Assembly: GCA_951406725.2 (NCBI GenBank)
Contig: OX597824.1
Span: forward strand, 31,620,001-31,684,000
DNA: 64,000 bases
Origin: Octopus vulgaris
Lineage: Eukaryota
Direction of reading: 5' to 3'
Position numbers and translations under genes: made by a program. Shown here piece by piece: positions 13,606-52,623 of the stretch (its first letter is position 1; each line of letters opens with the position of its first letter). The notes under the pieces were generated by a model. It was given only the letters and a program-made list of their open reading frames with translations. It was not told where the DNA came from and did not search any database.

Positions 13606-13782
13606 ATGATTGCTGGTTTCCAGTACATGGCTATGACCATAACGGGAGCGTTTCATTTGGGTATTGGAATTTTGTGTTTCATTATTTCAATGGTGGGATT
13701 TTCAACAAAAATATTACAGTACCAACCCATTGGACATTTGTCTAATGTTACCTCTGCTGCAGCATGTATTGTAAGTCTATGG
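13606..13782 (+). CDS. Copy A coding exon 1 (TM1, loop 1, start of TM2)
   Basis: Acceptor ttttag ends at 13581, AAAATG start at 13606, donor TGG|gtaagt at 13783. Confidence 0.85.
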
Positions 13783-16700
13783 GTAAGTACTGATTTTTAC
13801 ATTTCTCTATCCTAATAAGGATGGTTACATAACTAATATCGGTTTTTATGACAACTATATACTTTTCAAAAATATATGGAAATACACCTAAATTTTTCGA
13901 ATCTTTTTGGTTTGAACGGCAGTTTTTTCTAGCGGTGTCATATGAAATTGTCACCCATAGTTATGACCCTAGTATCGATCTATTGCATTTCAATCTGTTT
14001 TAGGGTGGGAGGGAAGGGTGTCTTTTTTCTTCACAAATGTAAATAAACCCAATCTGTTTTTTAAACAAGGGACATATTCATACGGCACAGAATGTTTTTT
14101 ACCTCAATGGACGTCAGTGATTGGTTGAAATTGCAGAAATTGAAGAAAAAAATACAACAAATATCTTGCAAACTATAGAATTTTCCCAATATAGCCAAGA
14201 GAAAAAGATGTTTTATAAACATGTTCTACCAGTATATGAAGTTTAAAATTTTTTAGTTACCTAGAAATTATGTTAAAAACTGCTGTTCAAACCGAAAAGA
14301 TCCAATTTTTCAGATAATACTCATAAAAAGCAACCAGTACACTTTGCAAAGTGATTGACACTGGGAAGGGCATCCAACTATAGACACCATGCCAAAACAG
14401 ACAATAGAACCTGGGGCAGCTCTTATCAAATCGTCCAACTCCTGCCAACATAGAAAATGATGCTTCTGTTTTTGTTATCTCATGCTTAACTATTGTTTTG
14501 TGAAATGTTTGCTTATAGCAATGAATATTGGAACTTTGCATAGAATAGTGTTTGGAAATTCTCTCAACCTTAAACTGCAAATAAGGTATTTTATAGCAGA
14601 TATGAAGCACTTTAAAATGTATTGCTTTACTACAACAAAGAGTAAATAAATGCCCATAGATGATAATGTTCTCAACTGTGTATGTTTTATTTAATATTTT
14701 TTCTCAGTATCTCATATTCTATCATTATACACAATTATAATCATCTTTGTCATTTTAACATCCCTTTTTGGGGTTTGATGGTTCAACATAAACTGGTGAA
14801 TGAGGGGACTTTGTTGAGCCCCAATGTCTTCTTTGGCATGATTTCTATGGTTGGATGCTCTTCCTAATGTCAGCTACTTCACAGAGTGTACAGAGTGCTT
14901 TTTTCATGGCACCAAGCACTGGCAAGAACACCAGGTACCCCCAAAGTGAGTGGAGTGGAGTACTGAGCAATATAAAATTCATCATCATCATCGTTTAACG
15001 TCCGCTTTCCATGCTAGCATGGGTTGGACGATTTGACTGAGGACTAGCGAACCAGATGGCTGCACCAGGCTCCAATCTTGATTTGGCAGAGTGTCTACAG
15101 TTGGATGCCCTTCCTAATGCCAACCACTTTGAGAGTGTAGTGGGTGCTTTTACGTGCCACTGGCATGAGGGCCAGTCAGGCGGTAGGGCAAAGGTCACGG
15201 GAAATCGTGTTTTTTTTTTACATGTCACCTGCACAAGTACCGCTAAGGCAACGCTGGTAACGATCACGCTCAAATGGGGATTTTTACGTGCCACCGGCAC
15301 GAACGCCAGTTGGCTCCTCTGGCAACAATCACGCTCAGATGGTGCTTTTAGTGCTCCATTAGCACAGATGCTAGTCAGCGAATTTGATTTCGATTCCGAT
15401 TTCACTTGCCTCAACAGGTCTTCGCAAGCAGTGTCCAATGAAGGGAAGGTACGCAAAGGTGGGCTGGTTGCACCCTTGGCTCTGCGATAATTCCCTTCCT
15501 CATCAGCTTCTTTCCCAGATCTTTGATTTTTTCCTCTTTAAACTGGCTTTGTTTGCTTATTTCCTTGTGTAATATCTGCTTGAATGTTTGCTTGTGAACA
15601 TCCTAATTACTACATCATCCCTCTCAGGGACAGATTTATACACCCTAACAATGATTGAAACACACTTCCAATTACTCAGTAATTAAGTTATGTGGGTTTA
15701 GAAAAAGAATCAAGTCAGTTATAGGAGGATAACGTGTTTGTTCACTGCTTGATTAAAGGATTTTTTTACAAATTTTATCGGCAATAGTGTTTATTGTTTC
15801 TGTGCAACTGACACAAAGTCTACTATTATGTGTGCATAGTTTATGATATGTACACAATTAAATGACCATTTTACTGGAGGAATTAGCATCCTGTCTGTCT
15901 GCTTACTAGAATTTTGGTTTCTGCTAAATTGATGTTGAAGCCCTTTAAATCCAGGTTTTGCTTCTACACCTGGAATTTCTTTTCTAATTCTACTACAGAT
16001 TCAGTTTAAATAACAAGATTAGCAGCAGAGAGGAGTTCCGTGGACAACCAGCCTTAAACTCCTCTGTTATAGCCTAAAAGATAAATAGGAGAAGACTGAG
16101 AATCAAACCCTGGTGAGCTCCTAGCTGCACATTAAATTTGTTGCTGTACTTATTAGCTTTCACTGTGTGGACAACACCCTCGCTTCTTCAGCAACCATCA
16201 CATCAGAAAGCAAGAGATTTATTTGCTTTCTCTATGTCAATAAATGCCAAGTGCAGCAGATTACATTTGGCTAAATACTTCTGCAGTTGCCTTACTAGGA
16301 AGAAAGCACCAGCTTCACTTCTTACTCAGCTAACTCACTAGTATATATATATATACACACACACACATATACATACATACATTAATTAATTAATTAATTA
16401 TCTGACTATCTTATCTTAAAATTTTACATTTAATTGTACATTTTTTGTTTTGTTTAGGTTATCGCAGTTGGCATCTTTGGAATTCTTGCTGGTCTCAAGT
16501 CAAATACAGAATTACAAACCAGGAGAATGGTAAAAATTTCTCTGACTATTAATCTTTTCTGTTCAAATTTTCAGTCTGTTTAATGTTTACAATTAAAAAG
16601 CATCTAGTTATTACTTATCAGAAATAGTAACACTATAGAAAATGCTATATTTATCCAGTTTTCCAGTGGTAGACCATGCTCTTGGCAGAATTAACAAATA

Positions 16701-50300: not shown

Positions 50301-52623
50301 GGAAAATATCTTGTAACAGACTTTATAAAAAAGAAAACAAACCTTTTAATATTCTTTCAGATAAATAAACTGTAAAAAGAGCCAAATAATGGCATGGCTG
50401 TGTGTTAAGAAGTTTCCTTCTCAACCACTGCATTGCATGTTGGGCAAGTGTATTCTTCTATAGCCTTGGGCTGACTGCAGGCTTGTGAGTGGATTTTATT
50501 GATGGAAACTTAAAGAAGTCTATCATATGTGTGTGTGTGTGAACTTTAGGTTTGTTAAAATATGTTTGTGATATATGACTTCTAAAGGCAAATTCATTGT
50601 AGTTACCCTGGAGAAAAGAATTCTCTCCAAGAGGTGTGAAAGCACCATATCTGCCCAGTGCTTCTCCGTATCAGATTCCCAGACACACATTTCTGGCTCT
50701 TTAGCCTTCCTCAATGGAAAATACCAGAGAGAGATAACCCTGGGCAGATTCAAAACCTGTTTCTTTTAGTTAACTAAAAAAACAGTCAACATCAGTGACT
50801 GATTTGCACTAGTGGACCAAACAGTGATTAGGAAGATCTTTAGATTATGGCTCTAAACTTTAAAATGAGTTGAGCATGGCTGCAGGCCATTGACTGAAAC
50901 TAGTAAAAGAATCTTTTTAAAAATCAACTCTATTTAATATAAAGTTAGTTGACCTAGTGATTGTGCCCTCAATTCTTGAATCAGGTAGCACATTGTGTTT
51001 TTGAGCAAAACACTTCATTTTATGTTCCTCCTGTGATGAAATCGCATCCCATTCAGGGGAAATGTTTTGATCTCAGTCCCTTATATGCTTTGGAAACTAG
51101 ATAGCTGGTCCTATGAGCAGTAGACAGCAATGTGCAACAGTTGATGGTGGTGTTGTGGGATTATTCTGGACATGGCTGCAGACCAGTGACTGAAACTTGT
51201 AAAAGATTAAGTGACTGCATTTATAACTTTTAATACCAATAAAGATTATCAAAAATGCAAAGTCATTGCTTGAAAAATCTGAAAAGATAACCCTGTACTG
51301 TAAGATTATCACATATTTCTTTCACTTTTTCTCATTAAGAATTTTTTGTTTTACAGGCAATGTCTTCTCGTTATAAAAGTTATTATCCTTTATTTTGTGT
51401 TGGATCCTTTGCTATGTTTGCGGAATTTGTTTTGGCTATTGTCTCTTCATCCATTTGCTGCTGCTGCTCACAAGCAAAGGTAACTATAGTTTACTCATTT
51501 GATAAATATAATTGTGTAATAAGAGGCAAAGTTCATTCCATTTACATCCTAGATTTGGAAATATTTTGTGACTTCTGATCTATGTCCCTGCCATAGAACA
51601 GGTTACATGATGTTGAGATTCCATGTGTGACATCCAACTCTGTAGGATACAAGATTCGGGTTTAATTCTGTTTTCAGAACCATAAAGAGATAGGTGAAAA
51701 GGGAAAATAAAAAATCCAAAACTAGATGGGAAATGGGGAGTATATGATATGCTAGAGAAATAAGCTGTAAAGGTAGTGCTCAAGGTTACATATCAGGAGA
51801 TAGTAGGATTATGGTGAAAGGAAAAAATACATGAAGATGGAGAACATGATGTTGGACATCATGCAGGCTTACCATTTGACCTCCATTTTTTGCATTGCTG
51901 TTCTTATCCAACAAAGGGTAAAATTAATTAATTAAGAAGTAATCAATAATTTCACCAAGTAGATTTCAGCATGAAAAAGGACCATTTCACGGTAAACTTA
52001 AGTAATACTTTATAATTAGGGTTCAGCAAAGATATGCTTTACCACATACCGAAGTTTAGAAATAGTTTTTCTGGGAGTTCCTTTTTAAAGTAGAAGAAAT
52101 AGCTAAGGTTTTTTGGCTGCTATTTCTAAACTTTGGTATGTGGTAAAGCATATCTTTGCAGAACCCTAATTATAAAGTATATATATGTATATATAGAGAC
52201 AGGAGAAATTATGGTAAACACAAGTTTATATTATTTGCTCCACTTCACTGGAAGATGATACTCTATATGCAGCTTTTAATTCAACAATCGCAATAGTACA
52301 TCTAACTACACACAAGATTTACTATGTATGAATTGCCATTGAAAAATAGATGCAAATCAAGGTATTCTTTAATTTTTTTTAGAATGATTTTAGAGTTGTT
52401 TATTTTTGCTGCCTTTATATGATCCAACATTTTTTTGTTTCTAAAGAAATTCAGTATTTCTTTAATAATTTTTTTTTCTTTGCTTCTACAGAGTAATGTA
52501 GTTGTTATCCATCAGAACCAGGCTACTGAATTCGTGAATCCGTCAATTAATACACACTACTCACCAATTATTCATTATTCTCCAAATGTTGCTGACCCAT
52601 ATATGCCTCAAGAATTCAATTAA
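44140..52623 (+). CDS. Four-transmembrane MS4A/CD20-like membrane protein, copy B (197 aa; join 44140-44316,47032-47103,49957-50046,51357-51479,52492-52623)
   Basis: Same exon structure and intact splice sites as copy A, with the frame open throughout. GAA>TAA at 52621 ends the protein 3 codons earlier. Confidence 0.85.
44425..44842. mobile_element. Same MITE insertion in copy B
   Basis: Same TIRs and AATTTTTC TSD at the paralogous position. Confidence 0.85.
47032..47103 (+). CDS. Copy B coding exon 2
   Basis: Paralogous to 16458-16529; L72H. Confidence 0.82.
49957..50046 (+). CDS. Copy B coding exon 3
   Basis: Paralogous to 19396-19485; S99T, G101V, S104I and one synonymous change. Confidence 0.85.
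51357..51479 (+). CDS. Copy B coding exon 4
   Basis: Paralogous to 20829-20951; D120K. Confidence 0.85.
52492..52623 (+). CDS. Copy B coding exon 5
   Basis: Paralogous to 21935-22075; T181I, stop at codon 198. Confidence 0.8.
   Translation, partial: SNVVVIHQNQATEFVNPSINTHYSPIIHYSPNVADPYMPQEFN

Follow-up and report, generated by a model that had tools for sequence, protein, structure and literature searches.

A tandem array of likely CD20-like tetraspan genes in Octopus vulgaris and evidence of diversifying selection on their predicted outward face

A 64,000-nt stretch of the Octopus vulgaris genome (assembly GCA_951406725.2, contig OX597824.1, positions 31,620,001 to 31,684,000 of the forward strand; hereafter the window, whose numbering is used unless C11 or C3 is named) contains a head-to-tail tandem duplication, the two units of which are 95-98% identical in a self-BLAST comparison. 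Each unit carries one five-exon gene for a predicted four-helix membrane protein: copy A (13606-22075) encodes 200 amino acids and equals the O. vulgaris record CAI9729919.1, and copy B (44140-52623) encodes 197 amino acids and equals the record CAI9729920.1. The pair belongs to an array of 11 genes at C11:31.31-31.98 Mb, 10 of them with five intact exons, that was delineated by two-exon searches and tblastn over 864 kb, and across this array replacement changes exceed both silent and intron change. Family-wide positive selection is highly probable. The pattern appears best compatible with an outward recognition surface engaged in an arms race, probably with pathogens or parasites; the probability of this full immune reading is put at about one half.

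The selection signal is carried by the array. Site models fitted to ten genes give likelihood-ratio test (LRT) values of 70.6 for M1a/M2a and 68.0 for M8a/M8, with omega of 5-6 on 16-18% of sites, and the selected sites are mostly residues 35-48 and 114-124, in both predicted outer loops. The eleventh gene, g4 (C11:31486871-31518300), is divergent: its first transmembrane helix (TM1) contains charged residues, its tail is a long PPQY repeat, and tblastn over the 864 kb did not recover its exon 3; because of the divergence and the missing exon, g4, which is probably a decaying copy, is omitted from all counts. A sequence-only reading of the window had proposed diversifying selection on the predicted outward face, with omega above 1 once more sequences were added. 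This is borne out by the ten-gene models and by a young trio of genes (g1, g10 and g11), independent of A/B, that gives omega of 2.7-3.5 (p 0.007-0.036); pooled with A/B, the trio gives p of 0.002-0.02 over three codon models. What that reading missed is the place of the pair in the array and the fact that the change is one-sided, falling on copy B. Within the trio, g1 and g10 differ by 35-37 replacements, compared with about 9.7 expected, and by 3 silent changes. Their silent divergence (3/129, 2.3%) equals that of the introns (2.26%), replacement divergence is about 8.5%, and the excess of replacement over intron change stays significant without the loop codons and the tail (P<=2e-5). The gap-free set of A, g8 and g9, without B, yields an LRT of 28.4 and flags sites 38-41, 43, 47, 62 and 122. 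In a separate test with the loops removed, the LRT is 14.2. The changes fall on the predicted outward half of the molecule at 11 of 12 core positions in A/B (P=0.006), 20 of 24 in g1/g10 and 17 of 23 in g1/g11 (marginal).

Splicing of the two copies, five exons each, recovers both tandem coding sequences of about 600 nt and reproduces exactly the 17 nucleotide differences that had been listed for them, namely 15 replacement, one silent and one stop (one step of S104I is possibly silent). These are L37S, Q38E, Q40R, P41S, I42F, V48A, T49I, L72H, I97I, S99T, G101V, S104I (2 nt), D120K (2 nt), T181I and E198stop. Seven lie within 37 nt of the first coding exon of copy B (44140-44316, plus strand, as are all exons below), at 44249-44285, codons 37-49, equivalent to 13715-13751 in copy A. 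The probability of such a cluster is P=0.002 if 17 differences are assumed and P=0.0002 under the intron rate; no 37-nt window in 16,545 non-coding sites distant from gaps contains more than 5 differences, and dense mismatch clusters in non-coding DNA proved to be alignment artefacts beside indels. The claim of seven replacements in 13 codons between TM1 and TM2 stands as a cluster, but V48A and T49I are located in the first outer turn of helix 2, which starts at residue 45 in the AlphaFold model, not in the free loop. T49I also removes an N-x-T sequon, which probably has no relevance, given that the loop seems too short to be glycosylated.

Further along copy B, exon 2 (47032-47103) carries L72H at 47069 (H72 is also present in O. 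sinensis isoform X3), and exon 3 (49957-50046) carries S99T, G101V, S104I and the silent I97 change, with V101 found also in the RNA-type run X9 and in O. sinensis isoforms X2 and X3. Exon 4 (51357-51479) carries K120, shared with O. sinensis isoform X2, and exon 5 (52492-52623) carries T181I and the codon-198 stop at 52621-52623. The silent I97 change apparently occurred on A, because g8 and g9 have the letter of B. D120K had been described as a charge reversal; the two-base difference is real, but it probably represents one change per copy, E to D on A and E to K on B, because O. bimaculoides has E at 120. When the differences are polarised with O. bimaculoides, 13 of 14 replacements and the stop fall on B and one on A (13:1, P=0.002). 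The 13 replacements on B compare with 3.7 expected from introns (P=1e-4), and of the 8 sites that are flagged when B is excluded, B has altered 3 (P=0.014). Intron divergence between the copies, which had been judged by eye as about 1% or less, is somewhat higher, 1.62% overall (122/7509) and 2.7, 0.9, 1.3 and 1.4% for introns 1 to 4; the 2.7% of intron 1 arises because a 410-nt repeat differs more than the remaining intron. This repeat is found in intron 1 of both copies (13899-14305 and 44426-44844) and also at 4664-5075. Between A and B, the flanks of exon 1 contain one substitution in about 420 nt, which argues against an imported old block as the origin of the B loop. This loop is found in neither g8 nor g9; as candidate gene-conversion donors, g8 shares just 1 and g9 just 2 of the 7 B letters, and a genome search returned no closer copy of exon 1.

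Positive selection on copy B itself is likely. The one-sided change, the new stop, the position of L72H at a helix end and an omega that for B alone is not significantly above 1 could also be taken to mean that copy B is redundant, under relaxed constraint and on its way to loss, with tolerant loops and chance producing the pattern. Likewise, g4 seems decayed, and O. sinensis isoform X3 is frameshifted. Relaxation, however, gives omega up to 1, whereas replacements on B reach 3.5 times the intron expectation; they are clustered and hit sites flagged without B. Furthermore, the stop, which is seen in none of the four RNA-type contig sets, removes 3 residues only, paralogues have L, Q or K at site 72, and B letters appear abundant in X9. 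Decay of copy B is an improbable explanation.

Contig sets were compared at the locus for four DNA runs (X4 and X1 cover it; X8 and X15 have no contig there) and four RNA-type runs (X9, X12, X13 and X14). These bear on the possibility that the assembler set two alleles of a single locus in tandem as A and B, so that the loop difference would be allelic. The 1.6% divergence is within the range of alleles, the unit junction lies in microsatellites, and the DNA contigs did not show both loops. By rough measures, however, exon-1 contig depth in X4 is 39.8, compared with 17.1-17.9 for three single-copy paralogues (about 2.3 times), and in X1 it is 139, compared with 41-58 (about 2.4-3.4 times). These depths agree with two or three copies rather than with a pair of alleles. 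In addition, O. sinensis records from one locus include both A-type and B-type exons, so that the assembler artefact is very improbable. In the spliced run X9, B letters are found at 3 of the 7 loop places with a depth of about 4929, compared with 4397 for A (by subtraction), and in X12 the corresponding values are 83 and 816.

The AlphaFold model contains four helices (residues 5-32, 45-70, 77-116 and 120-149; helix pLDDT 85-97) and a low-confidence tail; the N-terminus has about 5 residues, loop 1, the longer and most variable one, about 12, and loop 2 about 3-10. A homodimer prediction scored 0.01. A Foldseek search places FcεRIβ and CD20 at ranks 1, 2 and 4, with a chain of the dystrophin complex among the first (E 0.011-0.086); we take this chain to be sarcospan, presumably a protein of CD20-like Pfam status. 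The FcεRIβ sequence aligns weakly over TM1-TM2 (E 2.5). None of 24 family proteins matches PF04103 (CD20) at E<=1, and one further member scores 13.7 bits (cut-off 27.9 bits). A search of the genome with PF04103 gave five weak matches elsewhere, two with stops, and none on C11; Pfam searches with single exons gave nothing useful, and a PDB sequence search with A1 gave one chance match only. Among 11 further relatives, 7 match CD20 and 5 pass the Pfam cut-off; these mollusc proteins are reached from copy A by phmmer with E of 2e-7 to 2e-4. Atlas features give 0.90 to clusters that are 48-52% CD20. Because mollusc relatives pass PF04103 and MS4A proteins and sarcospan lead the weak fold search, the family is likely to consist of divergent CD20-like proteins. 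The label "MS4A-like" given by the sequence-only reading is justified by transitive homology only, with no direct CD20 match in the 24 proteins, and membership of MS4A in the strict sense is no more than putative.

The octopus genes have one phase-0 intron in mid-TM2 and another ahead of TM3, positions that may also be occupied in vertebrate MS4A genes; a literature search on vertebrate MS4A intron positions found nothing. Two other assignments were rejected. Claudins are characterized by a large first loop with a beta-sheet and the W-GLW-C-C signature; the UniRef label Claudin/PMP22 of P0003 is at odds with a loop 1 of about 12 residues that lacks this signature and with the absence of a claudin Pfam match in the 24 proteins. 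Tetraspanins have a large second loop with a CCG motif; the short loop 2 of the octopus proteins and a best score of 18.3 against a 32.1-bit cut-off argue against this family.

Both termini are predicted to be cytoplasmic and the two loops between TM1 and TM2 and between TM3 and TM4 outer, as suggested by homology, by the basic loop that joins TM2 to TM3 and by motifs in the tail; the cysteine cluster and tail motifs favour a cytoplasmic C-terminus. With this topology, the two loops together with the outer ends of the helices would form a single outward or luminal binding surface that may bind fast-changing foreign molecules, probably of pathogens or parasites. After the duplication, copy A would have kept the old surface under constraint, and copy B would have been driven to a new specificity. 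Palmitoylation of the cysteine cluster that follows TM4 is likely, and the tail, carrying YxxI in A and B and PPxY in many relatives (20 of 38 family tails, which are related sequences, against 2.6 expected), might direct the protein and its bound cargo towards endocytosis or ubiquitination of the NEDD4 type. The array would be continually reshaped as genes are duplicated, converted and lost. Recurrent replacement at identical positions across clades and sister species, the short divergence and the copy turnover fit a conflict with pathogens best. For four-TM MS4A/tetraspan-related proteins, one preprint reports positive selection mostly outside the cell (10.64898/2026.09.21.753075).

The main rival to the immune reading is chemosensation, in which the array would encode chemoreceptors akin to the MS4A proteins of necklace neurons and ascidian palp cells and the loop changes would retune odorant or tastant specificity. 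This is possible, at a probability well short of even. A study of ascidian MS4A genes reports the same pattern of clusters, lineage expansions, selected extracellular sites and enrichment in sensory cells (10.1101/2022.08.15.492342), and the outer TM3 changes could line a small-ligand pocket. However, the depth of exon contigs in X9 exceeds that of intron contigs by a factor of more than 100, and the same bulk runs also contain spliced forms of several paralogues, which fits broad expression better than sparse neurons, albeit weakly, depth being a poor measure; PPxY tails point to trafficking, and strict MS4A membership is only putative. In a further alternative, the surface would serve self/non-self, sperm-egg or partner-protein recognition, as in an FcεRIβ- or sarcospan-like subunit, and its evolution would be coupled to that of an endogenous partner. 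This mode of evolution is seen in reproductive and allorecognition proteins, and the best structural matches, sarcospan and FcεRIβ, are subunits of membrane complexes; however, a partner gene was not identified, and this alternative is quite unlikely.

Several observations weigh against the immune reading. The pair alone, in which the sequence-only reading had seen a strong signature of selection, does not prove selection: omega is 2.2-3.8 with p of 0.12-0.32, replacement against silent change within the pair gives binomial P=0.098 and Fisher P=0.14, and the branch test for B against omega=1 gives p=0.13. Omega values of 30-43 obtained on small sets are not credible in size, and the weight of the codon and site models is limited in that they are our own code with naive empirical Bayes (NEB), not codeml. 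In g1/g10, replacement against silent change gives p=0.054 without the gappy loop codons 37-46 and p=0.23 when the tail is left out too; g10/g11 has 4 of 6 changes on the outward half, with no enrichment. The introns of g10 and g11 are 0.06% apart, so that gene conversion is present in the array, a process that can depress the intron baseline and make site tests look stronger than they are. Structural similarity fails to separate MS4A from other four-helix bundles: the top VIA-align rows are sarcospan (Z 14.6 and 13.9) at 10-13% identity, and soluble four-helix bundles lie within 1 Z unit. The positive-inside rule is ambiguous, with 3-5 K/R residues in the inner loop of 10/10 genes and 1-6 in loop 1, and copies A and B lack PPxY. 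Finally, the B loop is found in none of the four DNA contig sets, X4 and X1 showing an A-like loop mixed with B-type intron indels, and it is missing from two of the four RNA-type sets, X13 and X14 having the A loop only. The mosaics in X4 and X1 can be a product of contig collapse.

Relatives of the array genes are found in O. bimaculoides, O. sinensis, Argonauta, a cuttlefish and further transcript-derived clades, and the family tree comprises molluscs only. Copy A is identical to O. sinensis XP_029642327.1 at 200/200 residues, and copy B groups with O. sinensis isoform X2 (support 97/86), which shares V101, K120 and I181 with B and has acquired seven further changes independently, one of which again affects codon 42. 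Isoform X3 of O. sinensis (P0002) has exon 4 in a shifted frame and, together with isoforms X1 and X2, implies three exon-3 types at the locus. In O. vulgaris, g10 and g11 (C11:31885000-31995000) share 99.94% identity from a point about 300 nt inside intron 1 through the end of the gene but differ by 1.4% upstream, with distinct exons 1. This near-identity appears to represent a conversion tract or a chimeric duplicate that ends short of the loop exon, and their intron divergence was ruled out as a neutral rate because the upstream DNA differs by 1.4%. Two O. vulgaris records (P0007 and P0008) join A exons to B exons in frame, and in another (P0012) g11 is linked to an additional set of exons 2-4; mis-mapping of reads between near-identical copies is a simpler cause than cross-copy splicing. 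An extended version of the proposal, in which coleoids would have evolved independently a polymorphic, uptake-coupled recognition repertoire built from a CD20-like tetraspan array by selection, duplication and conversion, perhaps with cross-copy exon splicing, is doubtful. The sole exon-search match outside C11 is a weak one to exon 4, with an internal TAG (C3:36788289-36788381, E 0.04).

Vertebrate MS4A proteins (CD20/MS4A1, FcεRIβ/MS4A2 and those of necklace neurons) resemble the octopus proteins in the four helices, predicted cytoplasmic termini, tandem array and outer-loop selection. The octopus proteins differ in having no direct Pfam CD20 match, an N-terminus of about 5 residues, a long variable loop 1, a short loop 2 and the Cys4 cluster after TM4. 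Mammalian necklace neurons reportedly use clustered, positively selected MS4A chemosensors. Ascidian MS4A expansions (Ciona, Botryllus) are reported to show the same clusters, recent paralogue clades, M1a/M2a support and extracellular selected sites, with nine Ciona genes enriched in palp sensory cells (10.1101/2022.08.15.492342); unlike these, the octopus array is an independent expansion in a protostome. Another study concluded that MS4A genes are absent from invertebrates (PMC2826416). The nearest relatives outside cephalopods are bivalve and gastropod CD20-like proteins (Saccostrea, Mytilus, Ylistrum, Sinanodonta, Elysia; full-length phmmer E 2e-7 to 2e-4, 24-29% identity), which share G14, G21, W59, G64, K84, E136 and the Cys cluster with the octopus family. 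However, they have longer termini, are uncharacterised and join by a very long branch; no gene of the bivalve type was found in the O. vulgaris genome with P0039 as query. ENTREP/FAM189A2 may be a comparable protein: it is reported to have CD20 homology, a cytoplasmic PPxY that engages and activates ITCH and a role in endocytosis, but it is described as a single-pass 450-aa protein (PMC8811627), and copies A and B have no PPxY. Literature searches, with bioRxiv supplements and subscription papers outside their scope, listed no cephalopod or mollusc MS4A report, and the gene identifiers are absent from the searched supplementary files of PMC9712504 and PMC9815951.

At the locus, duplication unit 1 (8974-37175, plus strand) carries copy A and terminates in TA/TG repeats and a short interspersed element (SINE). 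Unit 2 (37176-64000, plus strand) carries copy B and extends outside the window as far as about position 73,700 of the same numbering; the head-to-tail junction adjoins an (AT)n run at 37072-37175. In copy A, the first coding exon (13606-13782) encodes TM1, outer loop 1 and the first half of TM2, exon 2 (16458-16529) the second half of TM2 and the basic inner loop, exon 3 (19396-19485) TM3, exon 4 (20829-20951) outer loop 2, TM4 and the Cys4 cluster, and exon 5 (21935-22075) the tail with the YxxI motif and the stop. All four introns are GT-AG and phase 0 in both copies; RNA-type contigs contain the GT-AG joints of introns 1, 3 and 4 and so confirm them, and for intron 2 they offer a loose end only. 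An acceptor AG just upstream of the first coding exon of copy A implies a preceding untranslated exon; neither this exon nor a promoter was located upstream of the copies, where the candidate segments are repeats. A 2.28-kb segment upstream of copy B (39361-41645, strand not assigned) is missing from the A side, and the difference is probably a deletion in A, as a SINE is cut at 11112 on that side. Unit 2 alone has an insertion at 56042-57722 with a 193-aa open reading frame (ORF; 56595-57176), presumably a Tc1/mariner transposase fragment. Decayed ORFs on the minus strand at 30440-32033 and 33901-34653 are, we assume, reverse-transcriptase-like and integrase-like remnants of retrotransposons.

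To our knowledge, few variable recognition molecules have been described for cephalopod immunity or chemical sensing. The octopus array would extend the clustered, positively selected MS4A-like pattern from mammals and ascidians to a protostome, and it is unannotated and invisible to Pfam, yet selected in two independent young clades. It also offers a natural experiment, with copy A unchanged across two species and copy B different at 11 predicted outward residues, so that loop swaps can test specificity directly. If the repertoire interpretation is true, this family would represent a new receptor system of cephalopod immunity or sensation.

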